The position numbers and the translations under genes were made by a program. DNA of 64,000 bases, from the NCBI GenBank assembly GCA_024137785.1, contig JAHRHZ010000141.1, forward strand, positions 1,589,944 through 1,653,943. The letters run 5' to 3'. Positions 6,989 through 55,560 of the stretch are shown piece after piece. The notes under the pieces are model-generated. The model worked only from the letters and a program-made list of their open reading frames with translations. It had not been told where the DNA came from and did not search any database. The number at the start of each line of letters is the position of its first letter. Positions within the stretch are counted from its first letter, which is position 1. The stretch comes from Ginglymostoma cirratum (Eukaryota).

Positions 6989-7009
6989 CAGCTTGTTCTT
7001 TTGCAAGTT
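6989..7009 (-). CDS. 21-nt heptad micro-exon, type B, (E)LAKEQA, GC donor
   Basis: Minus strand: catttctgttttcttacag|AACTTGCAAAAGAACAAGCTG|gcaagtg; homologous to the exons at 19606 and 32958. Confidence 0.8.
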
Positions 7010-7429
7010 CTGTAAGAAAACAGAAATGATTATTAAAGATCACCCCCCATGTCCAAATTCCATTCACATTTATAAACCTCATTGCAATCTATCTGTATCT
7101 CATTTGTGTTTTTTTTAATAACTTCTCTCTTTTGCTCGTCATCCGTGTCTAAAATTGCATACACTAAAGCATTGTTTATTGCTGATACTACCCAACATCA
7201 AGCATTCCTTTACAATCTTACATTTTTCTATTATTAGGCAAAATTCTAGCGTAATCAAAGATGATATTCTTTAAGGAACAATATTGACCACATCCAGTGT
7301 ATTTACTTGAACCATATCCAATTGCGATAATGGAATGTATTGGATCGCAGAGTGCAGAGTTCTTTACAGATCCGATTAAGTGTAGTTAAGTGAAGGCTCA
7401 ACAACAGCAGTTTGTTCCAATTTGAACAT

Positions 7430-10400
7430 TAATCGAATAAGATTAAAAGACGTAAAAGGAAAAGAGTACTTATTAAATAAATTTTAAAAAGGAAAAAGGA
7501 GGGTAAAAGTCAATGAACCGCACGCCTGTCTGGCCGTCGTTGACACTTCGATCGATGGCAGGTCTGGAGGCCGATCTTATTCCTAGCACCGTTCACAATT
7601 CTGGTCGAAGGCGAAATTCAATGGCTTGGAAGAAAACTCTGTCTTATACAGATCAACAACCAGAAAGGCACATAAAAATAAACAATTACAGAAGACAAAA
7701 CTTTTGGCCAGTATAGAAAACAGCTACTGAAAAAAGAAGCTACATGTGTCATCTTCAACAGATAAAGACATGTCCACAGGATCTATTCAAGGCCATGCAG
7801 CATGCCAAATATCCTCATTAACTTTCCCAGCCTATTTTACCATCACATAAATCTGTTTTCTCATACACCTTTGAATATCATCATTAGCCTTCAGCCCTTC
7901 GGTCCATTCTATGCATTCCACCCCGATGATATTTGACAAAGCATGTTTCATTTGTAAATGTAGATGCACACCAACAGTGTGCACTAGGATTCATAATAAG
8001 AACATTTAACCTGCACCAAAAATGCAAAACTACAATTAAAATAACTAGCATCACTATAAATAATGCAATAATGCTATGTATCCTCAAAATAATTATCATG
8101 ACGAACTTTGGAGTTCGATCCTTATACATATCTCACCCCTAAAGCAACGTCAAGACACTAATAGAATCAGCAAGCTGTGCCAACTGATTAAGGCGACCAG
8201 AATATCGACTACATTCTTTTTCAGTTAATACATTTACATGTTTTGCTTCAAAATTCAGTATATTCCAGAGTCAAGTTCTTTAATTTGTGTGTTTTTTTAT
8301 CCTCCAGCTCCCTATCCACAAAACACTTCCTCCATATGCAAGTAACACCTTTTGATTTATCATATATATGGTATCCAACAATACATCTCGAGCGTTCACC
8401 AGGTTTTCACAATGAATTATGCTTATGACTTTTAGTGTTCCCAGATTCCGTTGCCACAGACGCCTGCACTACCCGAGTCTTAGCTTAACCTTCTTCTGCA
8501 TACACATACTGCCCTAACACGTTACAATTTCACTAGCTGGTTTAATCATACAAACGCTTAAGATGAGGGACCTGTTCGTCATCTGAGGGGCACTTTCACT
8601 CAGTCCACCATTACTTCTCCCAGAGTTCAAATTCTTCCATTTTTGTATCATTTTGACATAATAACGAATCATTTGTTTTTTATTTTGGCATAATTCTTCT
8701 TATATCCCTTTCACTAATACCATTTTCATTGTTTAAAATTATGTTCCTCAGTGTCTTACCGTTTACGCAATGATTTCGAGCTCTTCAAAGCCGCACTAAT
8801 CCTTTTGTCAAGTATTCTCCATGTCTGAGACCAGTTCTTCAGGACATGTTTTTTTTTTCTACGTTTCATGTTTGTTACCTTTGAGGTAACATTTCCTTTC
8901 ACACATTTACATCGGTGGTCTAGGACTATGTCACGTATTTTGGACTCCCATATGATTTCATCAAATGACCAATGAGATTTTACTTGTCCCTCCACATATC
9001 GTCAGGATGCCTTGGGTAGCTTGATCGCCAATTCAACTTGTCTTAAAATGAAAGACAAGGACACAGACATCAGCAAGAGGAAGCTGTCAGTTTGGTACAT
9101 TTGTCCAAACTCATTTTCACTCAAATGGATTTTAACCTCAATTCCATTTGGAACTAATTATTGCACTTTAATTGTCTTCTGCCACCAGTCTCCACCCCAA
9201 TTACACCGTCTCAGCCAATTTTGCAACTAAACTGTTACCAACATGTTTAATTGAACAGATCTGTATATTCTTGTAGTCCATAGAAAGTAATATTACCATA
9301 TTTTAAAACAGAAGTTCAACATGTGTACGTGAATCACTAGCAACATATTTTGTTTTCCTTTTCCTCTACGATTAGCCACTTGTTGAGTCATTCTAGATAT
9401 TTCATATATGCTGATAGAAATTTATCCAATTTGAATATTCTATTTACTCCATTAAAGTCACTAACCATTTTTGTATGCATTGAAATCACTGAAACTGTAT
9501 TCGTACTCACTGCTATTTTCCAGAATACCTTTAATTTTTCAGGTTACTATTCTATTTTAACGTTTTGGAATAACAAGGTATGTGATAATTAATACAATTT
9601 TTACATGACATGATTAAGTGAACCCAGGCTCAGTGGTTTCAAGGTTCATGACATTCATTATAATTGATATTTCCATAGTACTTGCCCAACAATAAAACAC
9701 GTTATTGATGAATTGCTTGATGGTTTAAGGGTACTCATCCAGCCCTGTGTTCTGTGGTTTCAATTGTACAAATGGGTTCAGGCTTCAATGTTTACAACTT
9801 TCAATATAAAAATAAACAAACTCCATCCATTGTACCTCAAGCAGAATGGCTTAATTAGTATTAAGTTGATATAGATGCAGAAAATGGATTGTGGGGGGGG
9901 AGGGGGAGGGATAAAGTTCAGCATTACGTCATCCTTGCTGCTGCTCCTTGAAGGAAGAGAGTGCCCATCCCTTTGTTAAATTAGTGTTTCCTAAACTCCA
10001 AGCAACACAGGAAGGTGAATTTTCAAAATCCCAATTTCCTTATTACTTCAATATTAACAATGATTCAATCTTATCATATGGAATTAAATATTCACACGTG
10101 GTAAAACAATACGTTGAAGTTTAGTCTGACTGGAAAATGAAATTCCAGAAATGTAATTTTTGGAAGCAAATTTTACCCAACTCAAAACACACCACGATGC
10201 CAATTGCAAAGGCTACATATCTACCCAGCTTTACAAACAAAAATTTTGAATCAACATTTCGCAGATTTTGAGTTTACACAACCACTAATTATTTCTTCAC
10301 AGGACTTTCCTTTAACCATACTGTTCCACACTAATACAGGCACACATGAAACTCCCAAATCTCAAACTGACACTTTCAATTATTTGCAGATCTCGAGCTC

Positions 10401-10920
10401 CAGGGAACAAAAAGGCTCAAATTATACAAGACAACATTTAGCCATCAACAAACCAAAGTGCATTCCAACTTGACCGCAAAGAATTAACGCTTCCAGAAGA
10501 TTCATTAGATCTGAACAGCGCAGAAACCTGTCCTCTAGTTATCTCGACCGACAACTCGCCTGGAAGCTGAGTATTCTCCTGAACCCAATCACAATTCCAT
10601 TCAGAGGCAGAGTCCAATGACTTGGAATGGAACTCACTCACGCATACAGTGTAACAAACAACAGAACACAGAGAGCTAAAAACAACTATTCCAGAAGAAA
10701 GAAAAACCTGTGGGCAATACAGAAAAGAGCTACAGAAGAAAATAAAAACAAACTGCAGGTGTGGTGTTCAGTCTGGAAAGGAATTTTCATCAGACTCATT
10801 CAAGGTCATGCGACATGCCCAATATCATCATTAACTTTCCCAGGCTATTTTGCTATCCTGTATAATCTATTTTTTTCATGAAGCTGTCGAATATCATCTT
10901 TAACTTTTAGCCCTGGAACC
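7430..10920 (-). mobile_element. Old LTR-element remnant bounded by diverged direct repeats
   Basis: About 7690-7900 aligns with about 10690-10915 (ttcaaggccatgc...atatcctcattaactttcccag...gaatatcatc...agccct); interior is degraded with no clear ORF. Confidence 0.5.
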
Positions 10921-11009
10921 CATGCTACATAGTGGTGAATTGTTCAGCCATATCCCGTAAACTCCTTCGAGATCATACGCTCGTGCATTTTATTTTTCGC
11001 AGCATCTAC

Positions 11010-11030
11010 CTTGCTTGCAGTTTTTCAGAT
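11010..11030 (-). CDS. 21-nt heptad micro-exon, type A, (D)LKNCKQ
   Basis: Minus strand: cttttcctttcaactgtgtccttcag|ATCTGAAAAACTGCAAGCAAG|gtagat; differs from exon 55540 mostly at synonymous sites. Confidence 0.85.
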
Positions 11031-11373
11031 CTGAAGGACACAGTTGAAAGGAAAAGTATTACACCTTCAGCATATTTTTTTTTGATAAAACCAGTAAACT
11101 ATTTCAGTCACAATATTCCAATGCTGAGACAATTTACGGAGAAACAAAATCATATGATACTGCATTTATCACTTCACAAAAAAAGGAAGTTGAAAACATG
11201 GAATGTGCTGCCTCGCTGCAGCAATTCCATTAATTCAATGGTTTAGCTATTATTTTATTTCGCACGAAAATAAAATTGACAACTCAGTGGATAATAGTCA
11301 TTTCAACATCTTGAGAACTTAGTCACCAAAAGTTTATAGTAATGACATTTTTCAAGCAATTAATGTGTAACTT

Positions 11374-12725
11374 ATAGAGTCACATAGAGCCGTAGACTCA
11401 CACAGGGCAGAGACAGAACCCTTGGCTCACTATGCAAATGACAAAAAACAACCATCAAACTACATTAGAGATAATAGGAACTGCAGATGCTGGAGATTCC
11501 GAGATAACGAAATGTGGAGCTGGATGAACACAGCAGGCCAGGCAATATCATAGGAGCAGGAAAGCTTGATGTTTCGGGCCTAAACTCAGGGTCTAGGCCC
11601 GAAACGTAAAGCTTTCCTGCTCCTATGATGCTGCTTGACCTGCTGTGTTCATCCAGCTCCACTTCTTGTTATCAAACTACATTAATCTCATTTACCAGTA
11701 CTTGGTGAAACCTTGTGATGCGTTTATATTTTGAGTACTCACCCAGAAGCTTCTTAAAAAAAAAGGTCACTAAACAATCAGCCTCCACCACACTTTCAGG
11801 CTTCACATTCTGACACAACTGAGTGAAAACGTACTTCAAATAACTCCTATAAACCACTTGCTACTCACACAAAACTTATATCCTGTGGCGCTTGGCATGT
11901 CTGCGCTAGGCAAAAACTTCACAGGGTCTCTTCTGTCGATAAATCTAACAATTTTTGAACTCCACAAACAAATCCCCATTCACTCTCTTCTTCTCCCACA
12001 AAGAAGCAAACACAGAGTATTCAAACTCCTCCCTGAGACACTTAATCTTCGGAAACCTACTAGCAAATCTCTTCCTCACCATCTGAACCATATCAACCCC
12101 TTTCAATGGCAAACAGAATTGCACACTTTCTTCGAATTGTGGCCTAACTAATTCTTTCTAAACTTGAAACTCGTCTTCCTTGTTCCTATATTCTGCACAT
12201 ACGTCATCAATGCAAGCATCCAACATGCCTTCTTCACAACCCTGTACCTTCCAGGATCTATGATCTTGCACACCAAGTTCATTTTGTTCCTTAGTATTTT
12301 GGAGGAAAATATAATGCATTTTGTATGACATTTCCTTATCAGATCTCCCATGATGTATCAACTTGCATTAATTACAACCAATCTTCATCTGTCATTACTT
12401 TGCCCAATTTATCAGCTGACCAATAATCAGGCTGTGGTCTGAGACAATTTAGAAAATCACCTATTTTGAGCCATCTACGATCTTACTCATTATTACTTTT
12501 ACATCCACATTCATGTCATTAATCAAAGTACAACAAGTGGGAGAACATTAATCTTGTAGTATACCTGGTCACAGGTTCCAATTGCAAAAGCAAAAGACCA
12601 CCATGAAGCTTTGCCACACACTTGCAAGACAATTTGGCTCGAATCCCATTCACTCTTAACTTTGAGATCAGTTTACCATGTCTAAACTTGTCAAAAAAAC
12701 TTATTGCAGATTTGCAGAACAATAA
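11374..12725 (-). mobile_element. CR1/HER1-type LINE 3' fragment
   Basis: atagagtc/catagag tail repeats at the left end; ORF 12519-12722 FDKFRHGKLISKLRVNGI resembles CR1 RT AFDKVPHGRL..K...GI. Confidence 0.75.
11468..11670. mobile_element. Palindromic Penelope-terminus-derived insertion nested in CR1
   Basis: About 85-bp inverted arms; perfect flanking direct repeat ATCAAACTACATTA at 11454-11467 and 11671-11684. Confidence 0.9.
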
Positions 12726-14989
12726 TTTGAAACAACAAATTAAGTAATTGCCACTTCGACATGATAATCAACAATAGTATGCTCTTCGATCTATTCTATT
12801 TCTTAATATAATAGTTGAATGAAGAATTCACACTGATAACCTATTAAACCTATTACTTACACTCTGGCCCTCCTCAAGCACAATTGATGAGCGACACTAT
12901 TTTGCTTTCTTCACATATCCATGCACATACACTTTCTTGAGTTGTTTCCAACTTATTGAATCTGAAGTCCAGTGTGAAACAACGGAAAGAAAAACTCTTG
13001 CTGTTACCAGTATGCATTCATCAACATGAACCACTCAGCTAAATAGAAATTTCAAGTGTTGTTCCTTGTTCACGTTCTCGAAGTATCTCCTTTCTCGTGG
13101 ATTCCATCTATATGCTTCATGGGTTTCAGTAAAAAGCCAGAAAGACTAGTGTTTTGAAGATTACTGACCAATATCTGTTTCGACTGATTTTTATTCTGCT
13201 CTCTGCAGTCATGTTGCCAGTCTGACTGATAAAATTGGTGATCTTTTTGACTGTCACGCCATACCTTTCCCTGATGACATAGGATTCATTAGTGATTTGT
13301 CTTTTGAAATAAGGCATTGCAAACGAACCACACACACACACGCACACACAGAAGGCAATATTTGCAAATTGGTGCAATTTCCCAAACATGGTAAGGCATT
13401 TGTAAAACGATTTAGCAGCCCACGATTTTGTTGATATACAAACACTTCAGGAATCTTTGGATGTGCGTTTGAATTTCTGCCACATACACTGTTCATCTCA
13501 GTATCTTCCATTATTTGTGACGTTTGACTTTTTGGACTGCAAAAATCATTCTCCTTCTCTCAGGTCTTGCTGATATAATGCTATAGATGTTGCTTTTGGC
13601 ACCCTAAAATCAATTGAGATCACCCTATAACTTACAAAATGCAGCTTTAATGACGCTATGTTGTCAATATCGCACAATGGAGTGTTATTTAGCAAATTTA
13701 AATGGCACCTGTGATGATGCATATGAAATATGGTGAATAGAGTGTGGTTATTTTGTGTTATTTTTTAAAGACATATAGAGATAAAAAGGACTGACTCTGG
13801 AGACATTTACATGTCATGGCGAGCTTTAATTTTGAGAATGTTACATATGCTGTATTTGCAATGTTTCGAGATTTTATGTTTCAGAGCTGCTCACGTTCAG
13901 ATATTTTTAAAGTCTTTTTTTTGTTGAAGACTTACTTCCATTTGGAGGTATGATTTTCAGGTACACTTTGAAAAAGCAATTTCCTGAGTACACTATGGTG
14001 GTTACGAGATATATTTTCTATTTTCTTTTCTCAAGGGTTTGTGAAGGAACAAATGTTCCACGTTATTAAACATAGAACATTGTAAGTGTCGACGCAACTG
14101 GATAATTGTACCTATCTTTACTAAAAGACGATACAAACAGTTCCAGACTGACTACGTGTCTCTATACACCGTCATCATCCCCATTTTATTTTGGTAATCA
14201 TGTAACATTTTCTTTCTTAACCATTAAAAAAAACCTCCACGTCTATCTATTGCAGAAAACATCATAGAGTCATTAATTTCTACTAGGAAAAAAAAGTTTT
14301 TTTTAAATAAAAAATCTCGGATGAAACTTAGTGAGACTTTCTTCGAATGTCTGTGTGACTTGCTTCCAAGCGATCTACCCTACCCCCAATCAAAAATCAC
14401 AGCCTTATCTATTGCACACTTATTGGTCACATGTGCACTAATCATCTACGTTTCTACTGTATTAACTTTCATTATTCGAAACATTGGAAATTTGAGCCCA
14501 TCACCATAATGGCTGCTTTGGACACAATCCCTTCCGAGCAGGGATTTCCTTGATAATTTTTTTTTTTAAATTACATTATCAACATGTTAAGAACAGCTTT
14601 CTTTTCACGAGAATACATAAATGTGACGCAAAAACTGGAGTGATAATATAACAAAAACCATGCAAATTCAGGAACGGTTTTTCCTCTTCTACTGAAATTA
14701 AACCCTTCTTGGACGAAAAGTTACCATTCATATTTTCTACTGTTTCATATGTGTCTGGATATTAAACAGTCATGAACACACACCTTATTTTTGATACCAA
14801 CTCTTTCACTCAAAGTTTAAGAAGTTATACATTTCAATGTTTTTTTTCAAAAATACAATACTGTGCACTTATTTGCTAAATGTAGCAGCTAATATGCTCT
14901 CAACTTTCAAATCAGTTTAGCCTCCCTTGCATCCGAACAACTCAGATTCCAAACTGAGATTTTTTTCTTAATTGTCAGCATTTTTTTTT

Positions 14990-15082
14990 CTCAAGAAGGG
15001 TCTAGAACCGAAACGTCAGCTTTCCTGCTCCTCTGATGCTGCATGGCCTGCTGTGTTCATTCAGCTCTACACCTTGTTATCT
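14990..15082 (+). mobile_element. Single-arm Penelope terminus fragment
   Basis: gaagggtctagaaccgaaacgtcagctttcctgctcctctgatgctgc...ccttgttatct matches 1-140. Confidence 0.8.
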
Positions 15083-16709
15083 GCGATTATTCCATATATT
15101 TCTCACACGAAAACAATGTCCTTTGTTCGTGAGAATGTGCGTCTAAAACAGTTCATTTGCACATTCGAATACTAACAATCTGCCATTTTGAGAATGATTT
15201 GTTTATTTATATTTTCTGCCTTCAGATTGATAATGTGCGCAATACATTACGCCCATTTGAATATTTGCCAGTTTTGTTTATTTATCTTCTGATTTGGATC
15301 TTCAGAAATGTTTTCTGACAGTTTATTTCATTGATTAAGTCTTCGCTAACTTGGGAAACAAAAACTTAGCCTAAAAACATCTTCAACAGTTTGTTTTTCG
15401 TTAGACGGAATTGCATACATAAACGGAAATTGGCTTTGACAAATTAAGCCTTTTTTTCTAGTTATCCAGTATTCTACTTGTAAATTTTTGCAAACGATTT
15501 ACTTCAAAGAATGAAGGCTTTCATTTCTTTCTCTGTCAACCACGCTTTTAAAATGTAGGATTGCATTTAGTACTTTCTTGTGCAGGACCGTTCATAGAAT
15601 TATATAAGGTGCCTGACTATGCTATCATGCTTTCAATACTTTCCATTGACATCGTTTAATCGCACGTTGGTAGCTCTCACTAGGATTAACAAGTATTATT
15701 GAAAATTCGATTGCTAATTTACTAATTTATGTTTTGCTCTTCACATGTTTCTTCTGTTGATGGGTATTTGCGATATTCATTTTTTCCCTATTTCTACGAC
15801 CATGAAGACAAACCAATGATAATTGCTTGAATCAATGTTAAAGTCACATTATTTTTCGTTATAGTTTCCTTGGTATCCATGTGGAATGGACACAAGTTTT
15901 TTTTTGAGACAGTGTTCCCATTTGCTATGCGTTCAGTACATTTTGCAGTCTGTGAACATGTTAATCGTTGGTGTATTCTTTTATGTTATCACTTTTTCCT
16001 GCGTTACAAATTGCACAAATTCTTTTAAGTGAGACTTTTTTATCTCTTTCGTTTGCAACATTTTACATTATTTTTGCATTCGTGAAGTATTCTATATATA
16101 CTTACCACCGAAAAAAAATCAAATACATCTTTCTTGAGACGACGTGTCAGATCTTCAAGTATTTCGTCTCCCTCAACTATTGTGCCTTCTTTCATGCATG
16201 TAATTTATCGTAACGCAAAAGACACATACTTGCTTTTCTTAACTTGTTAACTGGAAAAGGTACCTTATTTTAAGAAAAAAAGGTACACCCATGAATGCTA
16301 ACTTGTGGAGAAGTGGTAGTGACACTACCCCGGACGTGGAAGCACAGGTACACGTTCCAATTGCTCCAGAGTTGTGTAATTACATCTCTGAATACGGAGA
16401 GAAGAAACGGAGATGAAATAAAACATACCAAAGGTGAACAAAATGCCCTCTTGTGTACCAGTGGTACTTTCCTGATCTTTGACTCACTCGGACCAAGTTC
16501 AAATCTCATCTGCTGCAGAACTGTGGCATGACATTCCTGAACTTTTTTTTTCCTTTTTTTTAAAGAAAAAGACTATAGGACAGTCTGTAGCGAACTGGGA
16601 CTAGCCTACCCAAGCCAATGATTTGGTTCTACTTTTCTGCGGCACAATAAATTCTTTTTCATTTTCAAGCGCTGTTCTTGTGTTAATGTAATACGTGACA
16701 TTAAGTACA

Positions 16710-18560
16710 TAGTAAGATGATAACACTGAGCAGTAGAACAGGAAGATTTGGTACATTAAATGAGCATTTGACATTCAATAAAATCACTACTGATCTGGCA
16801 ATCCTCTGAAAGTCTACACTCAACTTTTAAAATCTTAATCATTTGAATCGGCCTGTTCTACCGTTAAAAAAAAAATCATTGCACCATAATGCAACGGCAC
16901 TCCACAGCCATGAATTCCATAGACTCACTACCTTCGAACGGCAGATGCATATATAATCAACTGGTGACGTCTGTCTCTCAAATTATTCCTTCCACAACTC
17001 GAGCCTCCCAAAATTATGAACAACATGTTTACATCGACTCAAACAAGTACCCTAAAAATCATATTTGTACACATAAGGATGTCATATATTTCCATAAACT
17101 CCACTGAGAGGGGGCACGACATACTCAACCTGTTCTCCAATGAAAAAAACCCTCCACTCAGCGATTGATCCATTGAAAATTCTATGGATTACCATCAATG
17201 TCAAGATACCATTCTTTATATAACGGGATCAAACCTGTCCAAAGCAATCTCGGAATCACCCGAACAGCATTTTCCATTGCTTTGTAAATGTTTCCCTTTT
17301 TGATCCCGTTGACTTTGAGATACGTTTCAATATGTTATCGATCAATGTACTATATACCTGATGTTTGTGTTTCTTTCATAAGAACATCTAAATCTCTCTT
17401 TGATGTTGTTGCTTACTTTGTCCTCATCACATATAGAGTTAACACTCTCTGTTATTTTGGTCAAATTGCGAAATCTCACACTTTCTTCTATCATTTTATA
17501 TGGCCAACATGTACTTACTAAATAAAATCTCCAGCATACATGTGCACGCACACAAATATAAACCCCTGTATTCCCGCAGCTATCAAAAACATATAAGCTG
17601 ATTTTTTCTAAAATAACAAATGTATTTTTACTCTCCTTTACAGAAGAACAAAGAATTATCTATACAACCTTTATACGATGCATGAGCTGAAGTTGCTGTC
17701 ACTTAACATGTAATGTAAACTGCTGGAGCACATTAAATTTGGTTTTATTTCTTGGAAATCCACTTCATTTATCCTGAGATAGTCGGAACTGCAGATGCTG
17801 GAGAATCTGAGGTAACTAGGTATAGAAATGGATGAACACAGCAGGCCAAGCAGCATCAGAGGAGCAGGAAAGATGACATTTCATGCCTCGACCGAAGAAG
17901 GGTCTAGGCCCGAAACGTCAGCTTTCCTGCTCCTCTGAGGCTGCTTGGTCTGTCGTGTTCATCCATTTCTACACCTTGTTATCTCATTTAGCCTGGTTGC
18001 TTTTTATTAAATCGATTTCATTGTCTCCTGAAAAAGAAACCCAGGAAGTTTGTCACCCAATATTCTTCTGGCATAGAGCCAGACTGGTTCCTCTTCACAG
18101 TATAATGATGTATAAATATTCTGCAATCTATTCTTTAAATTGGACACTACCATTTTCCTACTGTAGTTGTCAATGACTTACAGTTGCCTGCTAGCTTCCT
18201 CACTCCTCTATGTTTTGAATACCGGATTGACAATTTTTCTGACATTTAAATATTTAGGATATTAAAGTCAAGAAGGTTACTTGCAGTGTCTTCTGGACGT
18301 CTGCTTCCACTTTGATTAGTAGCAAAGGATGCAATCCATTAGGACGAGAAGAATCTATGTCTCATGTTTTGTGTCACAAGCAATATTTCTCCAGGAATAA
18401 CATTTAATTTATTTTCTAGATGCTGTTTGCAGCTATCACAGTCTATGTCAAATAACAGTACCGTACACTATGAAAAAGTTGATACAACCAACTTCATCAT
18501 CTCCTCTTCTATGCCAAGCTTCCCCAATAATACTTCCGTAGTCTCCTATCTAATTGGGCT
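16710..18560 (-). mobile_element. Very old CR1-like LINE debris
   Basis: Patchy resemblance to CR1 3' end and RT antisense sequence; no ORF. Confidence 0.35.
17777..17983. mobile_element. Palindromic Penelope-terminus-derived insertion
   Basis: Inverted arms; flanks TCATTTATCCTG (17765-17776) and TCATTTAGCCTG (17984-17995). Confidence 0.85.
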
Positions 18561-19605
18561 AATACTCAATTTGGCGCTTTCTTTACATTCAATACTTTAA
18601 TAAACAAGTACAGTCCTTTTTATTGTGTTACATGCTTTTTGATTTCATGTTTTATTTTCACTCACTTCTTTTATTTTATTGTTCTTCACCTTTCCTCTCA
18701 TCGTAAATCTTTTTGATTCTCTGAATTATGACAGATGTTTGACGAACAGTATTTTTTTTTAATCTTTGTATCATCATTCATAACTTACCTTTGCCAAAAA
18801 ATGCCTTTCATTTCTTTTTTTACAGTTCTGATGTTAATTTGCTTTTACCAATCGCCCGTCAGTTTTGAATACCATTTCCGATTTTTAAAAAAAATTTGTT
18901 TATATGTGATTCAGCTTCAAAACTATCCATGTTCTGTTGTGCTGCCCCAGTTACAGTCTCATCTAAAAAAATTCATATTTTAATCTTCATAAGTTACGTT
19001 CTATATACTGTTAGAACTGATTAATTCTTCCTCAAAGCTGCTCTCTCTATTATTTTCCATCCCCATGAAATTTTCCATTTGGTATTCTTTCTCTTGAACT
19101 CGTCACCAATCCTCTACGCTGCTTATTATTCTCTGTCTAATTCCTTCGCTCCTCCGAACCCGGAACTGATTAGGACAGGCCTCACATGGCTGGATATTTA
19201 TTGATCATCTGTGGAATTCTACAGGTAACAAGCTAATGCATCTTTCTCTTGCCGTGATTAATGCAAGCTTCCAGTTCAGAGAAGTAGGAGAGTCTGATCA
19301 TCACTCACAGTAAAGTGATTCTGTTTCTATTGCCCGAATTGTTATGTATATTCATATTTCTCTGTATCAGTGTGCATATCTCTGCCAGTCTCAGCACTCA
19401 CAGTTCTATCACTGCACTGAAAAACTGATCACATGCACCTATTTATTGCATTAAAAGAGGAAGGAATCTTACACATTGTTGGTTAAAAGGCGGATATTTA
19501 GCGATAATACTTGACCATCATGTATAATTTTTATACCAGCGTCACACTTATCACAGTTTCCGCAAGATTTACATAAATACAGACAAACGTGTTAACTCTG
19601 CTTAC

Positions 19606-19626
19606 CTGATTTTTCTTTTGCGAGAT
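19606..19626 (-). CDS. 21-nt heptad micro-exon, type B, (D)LAKEKS
   Basis: Minus strand: gtgttttgttttcaag|ATCTCGCAAAAGAAAAATCAG|gtaagc. Confidence 0.88.
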
Positions 19627-25645: not shown

Positions 25646-25647
25646 TT

Positions 25648-45272: not shown

Positions 45273-47483
45273 TTTATCTATTTTTACAGATTGGTTTGCG
45301 ATTTGAGTTAATGTGTTAATTAAAATTCACAAAGTGTTTATATTATAATGATTAAGTATTCTCAGTTGATCATGCTCACTAATCAATAGCTCCAATCGAC
45401 ATTTCCCCTTTAATGCACATGATGTCACGAGTGTTAATCTCTCCCGTTGTAGTATGCTCACGATATTTTCTTATGTGTAAAACTTGGAAATTATGGTTGC
45501 ACAGAACGGATTGGCTTCTTTTCAGATAAGAAATATTACAAGTAACCAGGAGCACTTTTGAACATGTCACGTACTGTAAATATTAAAATTTGCTCATTCA
45601 GAATAATAAATAATTCTGGGAGTGCACAGTTGACGTTGAAATAAACACTAAACTACATTTCAAGAATGTCAATCCATGTAAACTATCGTTTCTGCTTCAA
45701 AATGCTGCAAAAGTAACAAACATCCAGTAAAACTGATGTAATGCTGACGTTTCGTGGGAGATTCGTTCACACCTGTCAATGTTTTTACAGAAGTACCTTT
45801 TCAGTTCTAATGTAAAATATGCCTTGCATTAGTCAAGAGCGCAGATTAGTTGGAACGGAGAATTAATACGCTGAAACATTGGAGTAGAGAATGTATAAAA
45901 TGAACATCGTCGTGAGCAAACTCTAGATATTTGATAATACATGCCAGGCCATCGATGAAGGCTGAGTGTTCTTTTTGTTTTTTAATCCAGTCGATGAAAA
46001 GTTAAAGTGATTTGTCTTACTACTGTACTGAAACAATTGGGCTCATCATTTAAACATTAATGCAATCGAAACAGAAATACATTCTGACTATAGAGTAAGT
46101 GAATATTGTGACAACGATTGTCAAATTCAATAATTTACCTGGTGTATCGACCGCAAATATTACAAAGACCGCCAGATTGACTCCTAAAGCACATCACTTT
46201 GACAATTGGTAACGAACATGGTGCTGACCATACACATAAAACAAAATAAAGTGATGGAGAAAATCAGCATGTTTGTCAATACTTGCAAAGACAGAAACAG
46301 TGTTTCTGAATGTAGATTCATGATTTGAATGTAGATTGACTCTTTGCCCGTTATCATCAAAATATATGTCACAGAGACCAGGGTGAACAGGAACACTCCA
46401 TTCACTCTCCACAGAACCATGCTGTGATTTCCCTGAATATATATGCTTTGTTTGTTATTTTCCAGGTTTTCGCAAAACATTGTGTTCTATTTCCGAGTAT
46501 TAACCATCGGGTCCACACTTGCAAAATTAGAAACGAGAGTCCAACGCTCGATGAAATTGTGTATTTGGGAACACTGAGTGCTACACGCAAATATTAGAAA
46601 TGACTGTTGACATGCCATTTACGATTGTTATTCCCCATTAATTGTTGTCCATTGAGTTTTTGGTACGTCATTTATGACGTTTTATGCATCAATTTCTTCC
46701 CTGTATGCATTGAACCATCTCTGCATAATTAAAATTACCACTTAATTACGTTTGTTTCGGAAGACAGGCAATGCATTGACCAAGCAGTGTGAAACTATTT
46801 TATTTAACATCTAATTAATAGCCTTATGGTACAGTCAACATAAGATAAGACATAAATGCAACTTAATGAGTGAATTATCTAAGGAGAGGTCTCCAGCAAT
46901 TTGACCCTATTTGCCAATCGAATAATTGTTATCTTGCAGACGTTATTTTGCTTTATTCCATGACGATACACTGTAGAGAAAGGCCCTGAGGTATAAAATG
47001 TGAAGAGAAAACGTGTTTGTTTCAGCAATACGCAAGTTTTGTGTTAGCACTTCAAGATTTTTAAGTCGTTTTATTTTTCCAAACATTGCAAATGTTTTCA
47101 GACATATTTGTGGTTTGTCGTTATTTCTTTCCATCGAATGTTAAATTAACCAACCTCTACTATCTTGAAAACTGGATATTCGTTTCCTCCAAACTTCCCT
47201 GCACATCTATTTCATCTGTCTATTTAAAATTAATCGTATATCTTTCTTTCCTGTAATCCGTGCATCTACAGATGAATCCTTCTTAGTCCCCGAAAATACA
47301 GCAGTAACTTTCCTTTGGAATAAAAAACAGGAAGAACAAATGTCTTAGGATTCATCTATACAATATGAACCATATCACACACATTTTTCTTGAAAAGTAA
47401 GCACATCATGAGATAAATTCCAGGAAAGGTTCTACAGCGCACTCAGAAGATCGAACTCAGAGAACAGATTTTTTTTTTCTTAC

Positions 47484-47504
47484 CTTCTTGGGCACTTGCA
47501 AAAG
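47484..47504 (-). CDS. 21-nt heptad micro-exon, divergent B-like, (A)FASAQE
   Basis: Minus strand: gtactttatcctgtag|CTTTTGCAAGTGCCCAAGAAG|gtaaga; right length, phase and terminal G, but weaker homology to the others. Confidence 0.65.
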
Positions 47505-49390
47505 CTACAGGATAAAGTACTCATTTTGAAATGCACTCTTACATTTCCAAACGAGACACAACAGTTTTCAAAGTCAAGCTTAATTGAAATTGAATGAATT
47601 GCACTTTGACTTCTTATAGTTTGATTTAACATTCTCGTTTTTGCCACTTAATTTAGTTGCCATGAATTCCTCAATATACAAGGTCATTTTGTCTCAATTG
47701 TCGCTTAGCCTACTTTAAAGTATATGCGTCATGATCAAAATTACTTCTGGAAGATACCTGAACACATCATCTTCTAATGGTTTTCCATTGATCAATATGA
47801 AACTTTGAAGACTTTTTTTTTTACCCTACTGGTAATACCTATTAGTGCCCACATTGCAGGAATGCTATGATTCTATTAACTAACGGGAAATTGAGGAACA
47901 AGTACATCGGGAGATTCAAGACGGCTGTAAGAACAATCGGGTTCCAATAGTCTGAGGTCATACTTATCCAAACATAGTCTCACTGCCGTAGTGTTAAGGG
48001 CTTGGATGGGGGCAATGTGTTATCTGTGTTCAGGAAACTGTCTTGATGACTGTGTAGATGGTCATACTAGATACGAGAAAAAAATCAAACTCCTTTTAGG
48101 AAATGAGGCAGAGCAGAGTTAAAAAAAAAGAACAAGCCTGGTTCACATGTTAAAAGGTTAAACTTAGGCAATACAAATTTTAATGGAATTAGGCAGGAAC
48201 TTTCAGAATTTGTTTGGGGACGGTCTTTGCTCTGAAATGGACATCCTGCGAATGTTCAGCCTTCAGAAGCGAGAAAGTGTATAGGGCCAGCATCTTCCTC
48301 TTAATAAGAACGTGAAGATTTGCAGGAGTAAGGACCACTGAATGACAACAGAAACTGATGTTCTAGTTTAGCAAAAGATGGATGCATATGTTCGATAGAG
48401 GGGGGTGTAGGAGGTACTTAATAGTGAAATCAAGTGGTGAAATAGGGGACACAAAATAGCTTTGGTGGACAGGCGAATCCAGAGACGTTCTTTAAGTATA
48501 CTAAGGGCAAAGGAATAATAGGGCAGAGAATAACGCACAATGAAGATCAACCAGTATGTCTATGTGTGTTACCACAGGAGGTGGATTCGACTGTAAATGA
48601 ATATTTCGCGTCTGAATTTATTGGCATAAAGATAGGGAAGCTGGGAAATTTAGACAAATTAGTAATGATGTCTTGAATAACGTCCAATTTACAGAAGAGT
48701 TGATGCTCTGTATCTTAAAATCTTGATGACACTTGATTAATCTCCGGGACATAATCAAGTGCCTGATGCAACTTTCCTGGAAGCTAGGAGGGCAATTGCA
48801 GATATATATTGCCGTTGACAATCACGGGTGAAGTGCTGGAAGAACGGGCTTTGGTAAATTTTGTCTCATTATTTCAGTAAGTCTGCAAGGAAAACAGCAG
48901 GAACGTGTGGATCAGTGAGCCTAACGTGAATGTTGGGTATGGTGTTGGAACGGTTTCTGAGAGATAGGAATGAAATTCATTTGGAAAGGCAAGATCTAAT
49001 TAGGGTCATCTGTTATGCATTTTGGCATTGCCAATTCTTGTCTCACAAATCTATTGAGATTTTTGAAGAGAGACGAATTCAGATATATTTATTACAGAGA
49101 TGTAGGCTTTGTTTGCAAGATCTCAACAAGGTCAGCGGCAACGGTAGACTGGTTTGTCAGATTAGCTCAGATTGAATCGAAAGAGAGCGAGCCAATTAGA
49201 TACACCATTAAATATAGAGCAGGAGGTTGAGGTAGAGGGCTGTTACAGCAGCCAGCAGTGTTCCACAAGAATCAGTGCTTTTTCCACTGCTGATTGTCAT
49301 TTATATAAACGACTAATATAAGGTATTTTTGATATGTTTGTGGTTGACACCAGATTTGGTGGTAAAGTGAGCAGTGACGACTGATATCTA

Positions 49391-50384
49391 GAGAAAACAA
49401 GATGTGGAGCTGGATGAACACAGCAGTCCAAGAAGCATCATAGGAGCAGGAAAACTTGACGTTTTGGGCCTAGACCCTTCATCAGAAATGGGGGAGGGGA
49501 AGAGTGTTCTGAAATAAAGAGGGAGAGGGGGAGGCGTTAGAAGATGGATAGAGGAGAGAATAGGTGGAGAGGAGACAGACAAGTCAAAGAGGTGGGGATA
49601 GATCCAGTAAAGGTGAGTGTAGGTGGGGATGTAGGAAGGGGATATGTAAGTCCAGGGAGGACAGACAGGTCAAGGGGGCGGGATGAGGTCAGTAGATAGG
49701 AGATGGGGGTGGGCCTTGAGGTGGAAGGGCGGGATAGGTGAGAGGCAGAACAGGTTAGGGAGGCGGAGACAAGCTGGGCTGGTTTTGGGATGCGGTTGGG
49801 GGAGGGGAAGTTTTGAAGCTTGTGAAATCCATATTGATACCATTGGGCTGCAGGGTTCCCAGGCTGAATATGATTTGCTGTTCCTTCAGCCTTCGGGTGG
49901 CATCGTTGTGGCATTGCAGGAGGCCCAGGATGGACATGTCGTCTGAGGAATGGGAGAGGGAGTCGAAATTGTTCGCGACTGAGAGGTGCAATTGTTTGTT
50001 GCAAACTGAGTGCAGGTGTTCTGCAAAGCACTCCCCAAGCCTACTCTGGGTTTCCCCTATGTAGAGAAGGCCACAACGGGTACAGCGGATGCAGTATAGC
50101 ACATTGGCAGATGTGCAGGTGAACATCTGCTTGTTGTGGATAGTCTTCTTGGGGCCTGGGATTGGATTGAGGGAGGAGGTGTGGGGGCAGGTGTAGCACT
50201 TCCTGCGGTAGCAGGGAAAAGTGCCGGGTGTGGCGGGGCTGGAGGCGAGTGTGGAGCGGACAAGGGAATCACTTAGAGAGTGGTCCCTCCGGAAAGCAGA
50301 CAAGTGTGGGGAGGGAAAACTTTCTTTGGTGGAGGGGTTGGATTGCAGATGGCGGAAGTGTCGGAGGATGATGCGTTGGATCCA
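49391..50384 (-). mobile_element. Young 5'-truncated Penelope-like element with 12-bp TSD
   Basis: Perfect TSD GACTGATATCTA at 49379-49390 and 50385-50396; GIY-YIG ORF; pLTR matches 1-140. Confidence 0.93.
49755..50303 (-). pseudogene. GIY-YIG endonuclease domain of the Penelope element (open but 5'-truncated)
   Basis: PC...KCYTC...FTCTSANVLYCIRCTRCGLLYIGETQSRL..F.EH...E...I..LGTLQPNGIN. Confidence 0.88.
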
Positions 50385-52523
50385 GACTGATATCTAAGTG
50401 TATAATGTGAAGTTAGTCAGCGAGGACCGGGTTATGAGTATTTGCATGTGAAGTTTATGTTAGACACATGCGAGGTGTTCAATTTTGGCAAATCAAACCA
50501 TGGCCTGCCTGGCAGAATTAATGGTAAGGCACGACGTAGTGTTGTCAATCAAAAAGGAGTGCAGATGCATTGTTCCTTGGCTGTGATATGATAGATAGAC
50601 CTGGTGGGAAAGAATCTATTTGGCATGGCTGCCTTCACCGTTCAGAGAATTGATAGGAGCTGGAGCGTCATGTTCCAGCATTAAAGGACACTCGTGAGGA
50701 TATATTTAGTGTACTGTGTACATTTCTGGTCACTCTGCGAGTGAAATTATGTTATGAAGCTGGAAATCATACAAAAAAAAGACGTTAGCAATACATAAAC
50801 GTTTCAGTTATAAGGTCAGTTTTGATAGGCTGGGACCAGTTTCCCTGAAACATAGAAAGTTAACCTTAACTTTGCAGAGACTTATAAACTCTAATAGGGC
50901 ATAGATGATGTGACTAGCCAAGGGTGCTCACCCCCCGCCCTTCCCTGTACCAAATAACGAAACTAAAGGGTTTAGCCTTAACGGGAGTAGGAAAAGATTT
51001 AAAAGTGACCTACAATACAATCTTATTTTTTTTCACAGAAAAATCACTGCATATATGGAACGAGATGTCACAAGACATAATACAGATATGTACAACTGCA
51101 ACATTAAAAAGTCATTTGACCAGGAACATGGATAGGAAAGGTTTATACAGACATGGCCATAAGCAGGTAAATGGGGCTCGTTTAATTTACAAAACCTGTT
51201 TTACATGGATGATAGGTGTGGAAGGGTACGTTTGCGTGTTCTGTGACTCTCACTTTAAATACAAATTAGTGCCTTAAATCCATTTTGATGAGGTCGTAAT
51301 GCCTGCACAGTTCTGAATACATCTGCTTTCGTGTATCTACCTATGTAACACATTGTAATCTCTGAGCACGTGTTACAAATTTAAGAAAAATTGAAGGGAC
51401 CGAACTTTCATCTAATCATTACAACAGGCATATAATTATATCTTCATCAAGCTCGCATGCCATCCTAAAATTCTGTAGCTCCTACATCAATGACTTCCCG
51501 TGTTTCTAAAGTTCTGAAGAAGGATGACAATGACTTGAACATTTAAGGCATTGTCCTGAAACCTGCTTCGGGACTACTTACTGATATTCTTCAGGTCATC
51601 GTAGTTTTACTCGTTGTGTCTTGGTCATCTAATCTTTTGCATACTTGAATGTCTGATCTGGTTGCAAACTAAATAACATGTCTGTGTTTCAGTACGCTCG
51701 CTCTGTCAACTTCTGTCTCTACGTATCTATTCATGTCGTTTCTTTTGTTGTCAGTCGGTTGCTTTTTTTTAATTGACGAACTGGTTTGTTGTGTGCAGAA
51801 CAAATAAACGCAACAGCTGTATAAAGTAACACGCAAGCACATTTACAAATTCACCAAATGCAAAGACTGAGTTATCCAAAGAACACATTTCTTCTCAGAA
51901 GAAATAGAGAAAGTTCAATAAGCAATTCTACAAGAATTAACAGAGGGAATTATTAACAGTTCTTGACTGTAATTCGTGGTAGGAATTCTGTTTTTCAAAA
52001 AGGCTGCTAATATGACAATGATTTATGTAATTATTTTGCTGATTAGAAGATGACTGCTCTATACTTTCTGTCCATTGGTATTTCACTAGGTTACTCAGAA
52101 AGGTCAGCGCTCAGATTGTTTCAAAATTAGGCAGAGCGCTTGTTTTTTTTTACGCAAGGAAGTCATGTTTCTTTACAACTATGCTGAAAGTTACCAGGTT
52201 TTCTAAAAACATTGGGAATGTCTGTTTATTAAAAGGCAAATACGGTATAACCTTCCTGCTCATAATTTGTTCCATCTCTGACATGTCCTTTTAGAATGTC
52301 CAGACTTTTAAAAAAAAAATTAGACTTGGATTAAAATAGTTCATTTACCTGCTCGCAGTCACGAGGCCACTGCCTGTATATATTTATTTTCATCACTTGT
52401 AAAGGCTTAACTAAATGTAATCATCTATGATTGAGCAGTAGAGCAACTCTTGAGACCAAAAAGTTTACAAACAGGGTGGTTGAACTGCTCTGATAATTAA
52501 AATAGAAATACAATCTCTCAATC

Positions 52524-53380
52524 TGTTATGGTGAGAGTCCAGGTTCACTTCTAATAATTATGCATGACACACACAGAGAAGCTCTCCTCGCCTTTATACT
52601 TTGTTAAAAAGAGTGGTTAAATAAAAGAAAATTCCTGATATTCACTTTGTTAGTAACAATTTATTTATGTAACCCCAACAGTGAACAAATTAGCAAAATT
52701 AATAACAAACCGAGCAATTCCCACTTAACGACTAACTATTCCAAAACTGAACTACAACCTCCTGGCATGGTGTTCCAATAAGCACAAGTCACATTTGTAT
52801 AAACTTACGTAATAAGAAAATAAATTCAAACTTAGTCTATCGAAGCCTGCATGCGTTTCTTCTGCTATTCTCAAGTCTTAAAATCTTCCTTCTGCTGATC
52901 CGGCGATCAGGTGTGTTTTGTCTGTGAAACCTTCTGGGAATATTCGTAGCTAGAAGTGTGTGGCAACTTTTATAGATAGATGGTGATTTCGTGGATATTT
53001 TAGAGATTTCTCTTGACAGCCAGATGCTTATTTCTCAATTGATTCTTTTGCACACACTGATTTTGAAAAATCTCTCCTTATATACCTCGAATGGCAAGTA
53101 AATTTTCTTACAACAATCTTGGTCTGACGTTATCAAAACAATCAGATTTAAATTCGACATTTTTTTTTTCAATCGCTAAGTGCTCGGCTTACATTAATTG
53201 GCTGCTTCCAGCTATTTGCCAAAACATCAAATCAAGCCTAAGGTTTCCAATCACGCAGCCAATTGATACAAATTTCAAATTCAGAGCTGGTTTTACATCC
53301 TCAGCTACATACACCAACAATTTTTTTTTGTATCAATCTCTAAGCTTAAAAAAAAACACTTTTCCTCTTAAAGGAACCAA
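52524..53380 (-). mobile_element. Probable solo LTR
   Basis: Starts TGTTATGG; layout resembles the LTRs at 25648 and 55767; right end and TSD not resolved. Confidence 0.45.
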
Positions 53381-55539
53381 GAATCTTCTCCGATGTCTTT
53401 TTCCTTAAATAAATTCTAACTTCCTGCTTCCCCATTCGCACTTACGCTGCGCAACTTCGTGACGCTAACAAAAAAATTCATTGCAAGAAATCTATGTTGT
53501 TTAAGTGTAAATAACTCGAAATAATCGAGCAGGGTTGGTGTCTTGAAATGTTTGACATTGGCAAACTTCCAAATTGTTGCAACAGTTGTGTAGTTCTTTG
53601 ACTTCCATGCTTGGCGGAGACTATTTACTTCATCAAAAGTAAACCAAATATTGCCAACTGTGCAATAGTTCATTCTTGCTTTTTCAAAATAGAAGTACAT
53701 TTATGGAATTTCTATGTGCACAAAACATAAACAAATACCCTACACTTTGGGATCCATTTGTGGGTGAATCCTGAAGCAGTCTTCAAAGATTCCAGTACTG
53801 TTTCCTCACAAGAAAACGAACTAAATTGAAGTCTTGTGGGAGTTTTCTGTTTTTATCTGCCTACTTCTGCGTGTGTCTGAATGTGCGAGGATTGTCTGTT
53901 CTTTCGTGTCTTAAATAAACTGTGTATTTACTTTTCACAAAGCAAACTTTCATCAGTGCTAACTGACTGTTCTTTGTGTGTTTCCTTTTGACGAAATGTA
54001 ACTGCGCATCTACCAATTTCATACTGCCTGTAATAAATCACTCAACCGGCGTATAAAAGTATAATCTTGTTTGATATTTTATTGTATCATTTTTAGCTTA
54101 CTGTTTCATGAAGAAGCAACATTTCTGCTCCATCAGTCAATCAATTTTATTCAACTTCCTCTGTAGTATAAATTCGATCAACGAAGCTGCAATTCTGTCC
54201 ATTTGTACTCTCTGTCGCAACAGTGTCACAAGCTTTGTCCACATAGTATCGATAGAGTATTCATATGTGTTGGTGGTTTTGTAAAAGTCGAAAGGGTGTA
54301 ATATCACTAGTATGCATTATGGTTGTCTTTTTTTTTTGTCCATATCCGTCAACCCTGATATGTGAGAGAGCATATAACGTCCTTTCAAGTTTCATACGTA
54401 ATGATTGATTTCTGAAGGTAAACTCCCCGCCTCTTATTTATCATGATTGCAAAGTATAATTCCAAATTATTTGACAAACATTAAATGCTATTTTCAGTAT
54501 GGAAGCTTAAATTTGGCCTTTGGTGCAAGTGACATACAACAAGACCACGTCAAATGGCTGGATTATCTCATATATCACGCATTCAAGAGATTATTTTTCT
54601 GTTTGATAACTCACATAGACGATGTGTAAAGCCATTTATGAGACAAAAAAAAACTTACAGCATGTCGGAAAAGTCAGTGGGGAGCTAGTAAGTTATTTAA
54701 GGCGAGGAAGCAGTTCAGGAAACCACAACTAAAAACAAAGATTGTAGTAATTCAAAGTGGTCAAAAAATACATGCAAACCACCTAACACCGTTGCCTTCA
54801 ATAATTTGTGTTTTACAGATGTGTTATCATTTCTATTTGAAATTTTTGGTGATTACACACAAAAAAAAAACTTAACGGCGATTCTTTTCAATTTCGGGCT
54901 GAGTAAAATTACCAAATTTGCTTCATAGAAATGGAAACTGGAGACATGTGAATGGCGCATCACTCACACTGTCTATTTTGTTAGTTAGTATATTCAAGGG
55001 TAATCATGCTTTCACTAATTCTTTCTGCACCAGCCATCTCTCAGTCCCGTTCCTTCATTTCTTCCCTCTTCCTCATCAAGTCCCTCGCCTCTTTATTATT
55101 CAACAACATACCAAGACTCTGTAAAACCAAAGTTGTTTTATTTTTAACTTTGACTATGTCTCCCTTCCTTCGTTATTCCTAACAATTTCAACAACGACAG
55201 AATTACTAACACTATCTCTAAACCTTCGTCAGAGTACAGCATCACTGACGGACACAGCATGTTTCTGTAACAGAACTTGTTCTGCAATAAATTCCTTATC
55301 AGCCGTTATGTTCTGTGACTCAAACACTTATAAGCAATTATGCTAAGAATTGCTGAGAACGCACTGACAAAATATGGTGTGTTTAGCATTCAGAAAATGG
55401 ACATCGTGAAGTCAATTGAAGACACAAAAACATAGTTACTGATTTTCCTGTAGAGAGAAGACTTTATTATTTTTCAGCAACCTTGCATATTGTGAACGAC
55501 CTTCACAGAGCAGCGCAGAATATGTCCTTGCACCCTTAC

Positions 55540-55560
55540 CTTCTTTGCAATTCTTCAGAT
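55540..55560 (-). CDS. 21-nt heptad micro-exon, type A, (D)LKNCKE
   Basis: Minus strand: ctttccatttatacgtttcag|ATCTGAAGAATTGCAAAGAAG|gtaagg. Confidence 0.88.

Follow-up and report, generated by a model that had tools for sequence, protein, structure and literature searches.

A predicted shark gene of at least 0.9 Mb built from one-heptad micro-exons and coding for a putative coiled-coil spacer

The minus strand of contig JAHRHZ010000141.1 (C141) of Ginglymostoma cirratum carries, at one locus, 122 exons of 21 nt that are distributed over 609 kb and specify one heptad each; the first eight lie in the stretch of 64,000 nucleotides analysed here (contig positions 1,589,944 to 1,653,943; below, the window). 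We put at roughly one half the probability that they belong to a predicted shark gene, at least 0.9 Mb in length, whose protein product would be a long dimeric coiled-coil spacer. An earlier note on the window had proposed a coiled-coil gene under selection, with phase-1 exons of one heptad each, that forms the cytoplasmic tail of a butyrophilin (BTN)/BG-like receptor. The gene itself is borne out by leave-one-out profiles, reading frame and pN/pS. The BTN/BG assignment is weakened over the DNA covered, which reaches neither end of the gene, and the alternative named in the note, a different coiled-coil gene whose exons each carry one heptad, fits better. The expansion of 21-nt exons is new; in titles and abstract openings of the literature outside subscription journals and supplements, no description of a shark gene of such a kind was found.

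In gene order, the array opens with a type A exon at 55540..55560 of the window (C141:1645483-1645503; subtracting 1,589,943 from a contig position gives the window position). It is followed by a divergent type B exon at 47484..47504, a type A exon at 33389..33409 with a weak AAG acceptor, a type B exon at 32958..32978, a type A exon at 30857..30877, a type B exon at 19606..19626, also with an AAG acceptor, a type A exon at 11010..11030 and a type B exon at 6989..7009. As proposed, all eight are minus-strand segments preceded by AG and ending in G, followed by GT in six cases and by GC in two (32958 and 6989), and when joined in phase 1 they yield the same stop-free translation of 56 residues. 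They contain 168 coding bases; the remainder of the window (1..64000) would be intron of the predicted gene, which, given the rest of the array and its flanking exons, should extend past both window ends. The 410-nt intron preceding exon 32958 is a typical short A-to-B intron (array median 437.5 nt). The acceptors had been described as mostly polypyrimidine-led; those of exons 33389, 47484 and 19606 are weak under a generic splice model.

Profiles were built from seven of the exons at a time and used to score all non-training AG-N21-GY sites of the window. In 8/8 trials the eighth exon ranked first among 353 minus-strand sites, including the divergent exon 47484 (score 15.8), and none of the 312 plus-strand control sites scored higher. 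No ninth 21-nt copy was found in the window with the profile, the next score being 8.4 vs. at least 27 for the eight exons. A generic splice scan of the window returned 37 candidates per strand, none of them convincing besides the eight. An origin of the 21-mers as interspersed repeats or by chance is ruled out by the leave-one-out result, the single locus, the reading frame and pN/pS.

An iterated profile seeded on the eight exons retrieved 50 array exons in 464 kb, 42 of them outside the window and all on one strand; the weakest scored 21.9, while the highest of 2,404 plus-strand sites reached 9.6. With a score threshold of 12, the profile scan selected 122 exons among 4,833 minus-strand sites, vs. 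two among 4,539 plus-strand sites. The 114 exons beyond the window lie on the minus strand between contig positions 1576788 and 1036490. When the whole genome was searched with three patterns, all matches (20/20, 8/8 and 2/2) fell on the minus strand of C141, and a looser pattern placed 26 of its 29 matches on this contig, compared with three matches for the control. The two exon types, whose consensus sequences are D/E-L-K-K-C-K-E (A) and x-L-A-K-E-Q-A (B), alternate at 100 of the 121 junctions and together define a period of 14 residues. The alternation becomes looser toward the 3′ end of the array, and one exon-like copy is present in inverted orientation. Introns between array exons range from 0.1 to more than 20 kb. 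Ten clusters of homologous flanks recur in order along the locus, a signal of block duplication, and judged from these flanks the array expanded in this way. The absence of intron similarity reported in the earlier note thus stands for the eight window exons but not array-wide, where 75 of the 122 exons fall into clusters with homologous flanking introns.

The array frame contains a single stop in 854 codons, vs. 41 and 58 stops in the other two frames. Of the 122 exons, 121 are open, the exception being located at contig position 1214917; AG and GT/GC ends are intact in all. Values of pN/pS, uncorrected and obtained on exons picked by a profile that includes exon sequence and hence biased toward conserved copies, were 0.43 for type A, 0.53 for type B and 0.50 for 54 duplicate pairs, compared with 1.0-1.7 in the other frames. 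Together with the stop counts, these values of 0.4-0.5 support the claim of coding selection on the 21-nt exons. For window exons of the same type, the differences, which had been described as largely synonymous, are so by rate (pS 0.56, pN 0.23) but not by number, with 24 synonymous and 40 non-synonymous changes. A genome search for a spliced retrocopy, using the junction motif with up to three mismatches, gave no matches.

Outside the array, an open-frame scan of the minus strand revealed 23 candidate exons of 27 or 36 nt downstream (contig positions 1025870 down to 801631) and five weaker ones upstream (1709457 to 1677529). Downstream, open candidates on the minus and plus strands numbered 14 vs. 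1 for the 27-nt and 9 vs. 1 for the 36-nt length, other lengths averaging 1.5. With positions a and d assigned after the sequences were seen, hydrophobic residues occupy 24/32 a positions, 14/32 d positions and 33/147 of the rest, a pattern matched by none of 20,000 shuffles. Scored with the type A profile, two of the 36-nt exons reach 17.2, against a maximum of 11.7 among 386 plus-strand controls. Lengths alternate at only 13 of the 22 downstream junctions, and some of the 23 candidates are probably false. The five upstream candidates do alternate in length, and their heptad signal is non-significant (4,916 of 20,000 shuffles reach it). Within the array, 27/36-nt candidates are at background (2 and 2 vs. 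4 and 1), and narrow patterns for exons of these two lengths found no copies below contig position 801631 or above the array. A lone 21-nt copy was brought into the 27/36-nt region by a 3.9-kb duplication.

The 21-nt array and the 27/36-nt block are linked only by a shared strand, phase and register and by two exons that resemble type A. From these features it seems probable that pairs of 36- and 27-nt exons, three heptads per pair, continue the same gene in register, and that type A arose from codons 1 to 7 of the 36-nt exon. Since the 27/36-nt exons keep the heptad register, the predicted gene is likely to measure at least 0.9 Mb and to code for about 1,100-1,140 residues. The inferred span is 907,853 bases, of which 70,465 read N and about 3,400 would be coding, and the exon number is about 15 times that visible in the window. 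The most downstream exon found, at contig position 801631, is an internal one. Array and flanking exons apparently constitute one single-copy shark gene of about 0.9 Mb.

Over the 122 array exons, the hydrophobic fraction is 0.90 at codon 2, 0.38 at codon 5 and 0.03-0.08 at the remaining five, with 0.04 at codon 4 and 0.03 at codon 7 (0.39 if Ala is counted). Proline is absent from the 854 residues, and Fourier analysis of the translation gave a peak at a period of 3.5. Of 121 g-e′ pairs, 45 are attractive and two repulsive, and i,i+3/i+4 ion pairs number 274, compared with 186 ± 11 after shuffling. Cysteine occupies codon 5 (position d) in 28 of 56 type A exons, and in most type B exons this position is Glu, which is unusual for a stable core. 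Very probably, as far as the translation allows one to predict, two chains would pair in parallel as a coiled coil in which position a is Leu, position d is Cys or Glu, and acidic residues and Lys make g-e′ salt bridges. Since the predicted core is poorly packed, the dimer would probably be loose and joined by surface ion pairs. The product would mostly be one long, proline-free α-helical rod and, at a rise of 0.1485 nm per residue, about 1,140 residues would extend over roughly 170 nm. Because an exon equals a whole heptad, its duplication, loss or skipping keeps both the frame and the coil register, and the rod can therefore lengthen by tandem block duplication.

The cysteines could also point to a secreted or cell-surface rod, either a structural fibre or the neck region of a lectin, a tetherin-like factor or another type II membrane protein, in which Cys at d every 14 residues links the chains by disulfides. 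Symmetric exons that are all in phase 1 are typical of extracellular modules; the type A cysteines would pair in a parallel dimer, and the disulfides would compensate for the weak core. We nevertheless regard such a rod as unlikely. A signal-peptide-like candidate first exon 40 kb upstream (contig position 1684988) was rejected, since such candidates occur at background rate (1.05 Mb contain six on the minus strand and three on the plus strand), and 27/36-nt candidates occur farther upstream. The DNA examined showed no C-terminal extracellular domain.

Somewhat less likely still is a type I BTN/BG-like receptor. Its exons for the signal, for IgV (alone or followed by IgC) and for the transmembrane segment would then lie beyond the 208 kb covered upstream, and the array would be a huge cytoplasmic tail through which the receptor dimerises and, like the BG "zipper protein", attaches to the actin cytoskeleton. 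Chicken BG genes form a long coiled coil from 27-37 phase-1 exons of 21 nt, the first codon of each being split, placed after IgV and transmembrane exons (PMC5938342); duplication alters their number, and stop-bearing or read-through exons may shorten the tail (PMC5938342, PMC4046983). The shark array resembles them in exon size, phase and change of exon number by duplication. It differs in its at least 122 exons over 609 kb, its strict alternation of two types, its flanking 27/36-nt exons and its hydrophobic codons, 2 and 5 rather than the 4 and 7 of BG (PMC5938342). Butyrophilins, which are present in cartilaginous fish (PMC12841164), likewise carry very short heptad exons, which follow the transmembrane exon (PMC6790196). 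In BTN/BTNL genes there are only a few of them, between that exon and B30.2 (PMC5938342, PMC6790196, PMC12841164), whereas no IgV, IgC, transmembrane or B30.2 exon was found joined to the at least 122 heptad exons of the shark.

The receptor exons were sought on both sides. Past window position 64000, where IgV/IgC and transmembrane exons had been expected, none was found in 208 kb. In this region, of which 5 kb read N, no candidate ending in phase 1 exceeded an 18-residue hydropathy of 2.0, the top value, and the candidate exons directly 5′ of the array are the hydrophilic 27/36-nt ones. None of 81 upstream open frames of at least 88 aa matched an Ig family, while a control IgV was detected, and the D-x-G-x-Y-x-C motif is absent from the minus strand over 1.05 Mb. 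A V-set search of the genome scored 150 of 809 candidates, which leaves room for an IgV exon farther upstream, and introns here may exceed 20 kb. Nor was a B30.2 exon, expected before window position 1, matched downstream on C141 by SPRY (150/165 candidates scored), PRY (149/149) or a divergent B30.2 query (133/133), searches limited by stretches of N and by the failure of PRY to detect a known B30.2 on this contig. RING and B-box patterns were absent from 1.05 Mb; tblastn and phmmer detected neither domain, and Pfam matched none of the 81 upstream frames. A B30.2 exon at C141:2651509-2652024 is on the same strand, but it lies 1 Mb upstream and finishes in a stop and therefore cannot end the array gene; an IgV exon at C141:616003 is on the opposite strand. 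A 111-nt candidate exon upstream (contig position 1721809) is unproven: it had no homologue among longer proteins, no Pfam match and uninformative Atlas matches, and its sole library match, to WD40 repeats of a 1,584-aa protein, was spurious.

Least probable of all is a decaying relic whose selection signal is historical, or at least two tandem genes with the 21-nt and 27/36-nt blocks transcribed separately: one exon with a stop, one inverted exon-like copy, the 21-nt copy isolated in the 27/36-nt region, the looser alternation at the array 3′ end and the lack of a retrocopy match agree with it, but 121/122 exons are open and splice ends intact though flanking introns of related copies are only about 75% identical, duplicate pairs are more similar in exons (0.85) than in flanks (0.75), and no first or terminal exon was recognised between the blocks.

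For the coiled-coil spacer gene, it is conceivable, at a little under an even chance, that it belongs to a putative family of giant shark genes with 27/36-nt micro-exons, and that its product serves inside the cell as a dimeric spacer or scaffold and not as a membrane receptor tail. Such a spacer or scaffold would keep a terminal binding domain far from its anchor, as the coiled coils of TRIM or BG proteins do. A bolder and doubtful proposal is a splice-tuned molecular ruler: a vertebrate gene of about 1 Mb with at least 150 micro-exons of one heptad each, in which regulated skipping would set the length of a rod of 100-170 nm in steps of about 1 nm. It would be a member of a shark-specific gene family whose register has no relation to that of BG, and its repeat unit would have passed from three heptads (36 + 27 nt) to two (21 + 21 nt) through a splice-donor shift before block amplification. 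A parallel in exon layout is offered by the Schistosoma MEG genes, which have 10-20 exons, mostly symmetric tandem micro-exons, code for small secreted proteins and are alternatively spliced (bioRxiv 10.1101/2023.06.21.545858). The shark coding sequence likewise consists of tandem symmetric micro-exons that automatic annotation overlooks and whose skipping would preserve the frame; it has at least 122 exons, and no homology is implied.

The predicted gene would thus be near a megabase in size and invisible to ORF-based annotation, since only 168 bases of the window, and about 3,400 of the whole 908 kb, would be coding. It would reach the one-heptad-per-exon design of chicken BG tails at three to four times their exon number and, since the register differs, apparently independently. 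Cells expressing it would have to splice more than 120 successive 21-nt exons over introns of 0.1 to more than 20 kb. The locus offers a clean case of repeat-protein growth under the combined constraints of intron phase, coiled-coil register and the size of the exons.

All eight minus-strand segments that the earlier note had proposed as micro-exons were confirmed: each is 21 nt long, is preceded by AG, ends in G and reads in phase 1 without a stop, with a GT donor in six cases and GC in two. In leave-one-out scoring, every window exon ranked first among 353 competing minus-strand sites, and none of 312 plus-strand control sites outscored them. The feature is real. The introns between the eight exons measure 410 to 14,074 nt, and a generic splice scan of the window detected no further convincing exon.

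The remainder of the window contains interspersed repeats, including a family of ~90 nt with copies at window positions 51-140, 5073-5209, 11468-11674, 14993-15082, 17776-17986, 30122-30330, 41836-41925 and 49358-49531. Three back-to-back inverted pairs of this repeat, 5-51 nt apart (11503-11673, 17808-17986 and 30156-30330), could form intronic hairpins. Retroelement open frames with a Cys-rich motif, which we take to resemble a Penelope-type GIY-YIG endonuclease, lie on the minus strand at 49537-50393 and have many copies across the region. A local duplication (7731-7911 and 10744-10927; 73-74% identity, 3.0 kb apart) is out of exon register, and an 82-nt tandem repeat (2.3 copies) occupies 32355-32543.

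The analysis covered positions 799,944-1,853,943 of the contig, C141 (JAHRHZ010000141.1), and within them a search profile seeded on the eight window exons was iterated. The first 464 kb held 50 array exons, the weakest scoring 21.9 versus 9.6 for the best of 2,404 plus-strand sites; over 864 kb, 122 exons scored >12 among 4,833 minus-strand sites, versus 2 of 4,539 plus-strand sites. An upstream site at contig position 1790827, above threshold in the 464-kb scan, was excluded from the array count. The array spans 609,014 bases, from contig position 1645503 (the first exon of the window) to 1036490, including 60,055 N bases, stretches of which probably hide further exons. Genome-wide pattern matches in the 4.36-Gb assembly were confined to the array locus (2/2, 20/20 and 8/8); with a looser pattern, 26 of 29 matches fell there, and control matches numbered 3.

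When spliced, the 122 exons (119 GT donors, 3 GC) give 854 codons with a single stop, compared with 41 and 58 stops in the remaining two frames. That stop, a TAA at codon 7 of the minus-strand exon 1214917-1214937, lies between good splice sites and is the only one in the array; the exon could be dead and skipped, or could truncate the product as in the tails of chicken BG genes. Two exon types can be distinguished, type A (56 exons, consensus D/E-L-K-K-C-K-E) and type B (66 exons, x-L-A-K-E-Q-A), which alternate at 100 of 121 junctions (shuffled mean 60.5, maximum 81 in 10,000 shuffles); the median intron is 437.5 nt from A to B and 3,438.5 nt from B to A. The array exons are coding and under selection. 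Uncorrected pN/pS, a descriptive figure here because pairs are non-independent and the exon set was picked by sequence profile, was 0.43 for type A (1,540 pairs), 0.53 for type B (2,145 pairs) and 0.50 for 54 homologous-flank pairs, versus 1.0-2.8 in the remaining frames. The claim that differences between window exons are largely synonymous fails by count (40 non-synonymous versus 24 synonymous) and stands by uncorrected rate (pN/pS 0.41, 12 same-type pairs).

Homologous flanking introns group 75 of the 122 exons into 10 clusters, which recur in a set order, about four to six exons to a block; among the homologous-flank pairs, 327 match exons of one type and 7 match an A with a B exon. Since identity between blocks ranges from 63 to 89%, the duplications were spread over a long period. 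The first 27 exons lack flank homologues and look older; the window's eight are among them, which bears out their reported lack of intron similarity. Gain or loss of a symmetric exon encoding a whole heptad would keep both the frame and the coil register. A 21-mer that resembles a type A exon (score 25.2) and is bounded by AG and GT lies on the plus strand at 1133380-1133400, inside the array where alternation is irregular; it has no flank partner above null and is possibly a small inversion.

Further micro-exon candidates, of 27 and 36 nt, were selected solely for their splice scores, their length and an open frame. At contig positions 799,944-1,036,489, the minus strand carries 14 candidates of 27 nt and 9 of 36 nt, all of them open, compared with one of each on the plus strand and an average of 1.5 for other lengths. 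Taking codon 2 as heptad position a and codon 5 as d, and carrying the register across each 36+27-nt pair (three heptads), hydrophobic residues occupy a in 24/32 cases, d in 14/32 and other positions in 33/147, a pattern matched by 0 of 20,000 shuffles, with the register set after the peptides were seen. Since a 27-nt and a 36-nt candidate adjoin at only 13 of 22 junctions, some of these candidates are false or partners were missed. The opening of two 36-nt exons resembles type A (each scores 17.2, versus <=11.7 in 386 plus-strand controls), which suggests that type A derived from a 36-nt exon through a donor shift. Upstream, five candidates at 1709457-1677529 have lengths 27/36/27/36/27; their heptad signal is non-significant (reached by 4,916 of 20,000 shuffles). 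We strongly infer that the 21-nt array and the 27/36-nt exons form one continuous gene; from the first upstream candidate to the last exon seen, at 801631 and internal, it would cover 907,853 bases, with about 1,140 codons in all. Within the downstream 27/36-nt region, 934261-938149 is a 3.9-kb copy (88.8% identical) of 1364357-1368195 that places an identical type B exon (937573) 430 kb from its source. Broken plus-strand open frames at 1031234-1033456, in the intron that follows the final 21-nt exon, presumably represent an endogenous retroelement, their motifs resembling reverse transcriptase, RNase H and integrase.

The hydrophobic fraction in the 21-nt exons is 0.90 at codon 2, 0.38 at codon 5 and 0.03-0.08 elsewhere. 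The predicted product contains no proline; A, E, K, L, Q, M and R together make up 71% of it, and its hydrophobicity has a periodicity maximum at 3.5 residues. Of 121 g-e' pairs, 45 are attractive and 2 repulsive if Leu is placed at a, whereas placing it at d gives 25 and 6. Ion pairs within the helix number 274, versus 186 +- 11 in shuffled sequences. Helix and dimer are thus strongly predicted from sequence, and the product would fit a coiled coil of two parallel chains whose core is weak: d is occupied by Cys in 28/56 type A exons and by Glu in 39/66 type B exons. We give a probability of just over one half to the reading that the product is a giant coiled-coil protein of a shark micro-exon family, serving inside the cell as a spacer or scaffold. 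Such a rod would dimerise along its length and hold an end domain 100-170 nm away from its anchor, its intracellular localisation and the end domain being tentative parts of the proposal. An extracellular rod, linked by disulfides, is a doubtful reading of the same coiled coil.

The earlier note's assignment, a BTN/BG-like (butyrophilin or chicken BG) receptor tail, is unlikely. The 21-nt exons, the split first codon and the coiled coil are common to the BG tail, as far as the excerpt of PMC5938342 describes it. Unlike BG, the gene has a different register and no transmembrane exon directly ahead in the 208 kb searched; butyrophilins have few heptads in the excerpted sources, versus 122 exons here. 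As two BG features and one butyrophilin feature fail, we file the gene under neither. Cartilaginous fish possess butyrophilins according to the excerpt of PMC12841164, and that of PMC4046983 cites actin-myosin regulation for the soluble BG tail.

The IgV/IgC and transmembrane exons expected beyond window position 64000 did not appear: by hydropathy, the 208 kb upstream held no transmembrane-grade exon, and of the 81 non-repeat minus-strand frames there that reach 88 aa (frames crossing locus borders left out), none matched an Ig, RING or B-box family, in a search that did recover a control IgV. The Ig F-strand motif was absent from the minus strand of 1.05 Mb, and among 150 of 809 candidates scored in a genome-wide V-set search, one match fell on C141, on the opposite strand. 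A plus-strand V-set Ig exon near 616,000 (Pfam E 3.4e-16), which we take to be nectin/PVR-like, limits the room for the 3' end unless genes overlap. A minus-strand 111-nt candidate at 1721809-1721919 (phase 1-1, good splice sites, ATG near its start, open only in the gene's frame) is possibly the first coding exon; a search for a homologue found none. Nor was the B30.2 exon expected before window position 1 found downstream on C141 with SPRY (150 of 165 candidates scored), PRY (149/149) or divergent B30.2 (133/133) queries. The sole B30.2 detected on C141, a divergent minus-strand terminal exon with a phase-1 acceptor at 2651506-2652026, was ruled out as the end of the array gene, being 1 Mb upstream and the last exon of a different gene, which may be a paralogous micro-exon gene. 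A Chiloscyllium punctatum protein with 80% identity to it carries the annotation of an isolated 178-aa B30.2, as would be expected if preceding micro-exons had been missed. Since the PRY query missed this exon, a divergent B30.2 of the array gene could be missed likewise; it could also lie in masked DNA or be hidden by the end of the contig.

That the locus is a relic, or several genes, is distinctly improbable. Literature searches yielded no account of such a shark gene, which supplements and subscription journals, outside their scope, could hold; the excerpt of 10.1101/2023.06.21.545858 offers Schistosoma MEGs as a parallel in architecture only. What is striking in this putative giant coiled-coil gene is the scale of the array and the change of repeat unit.
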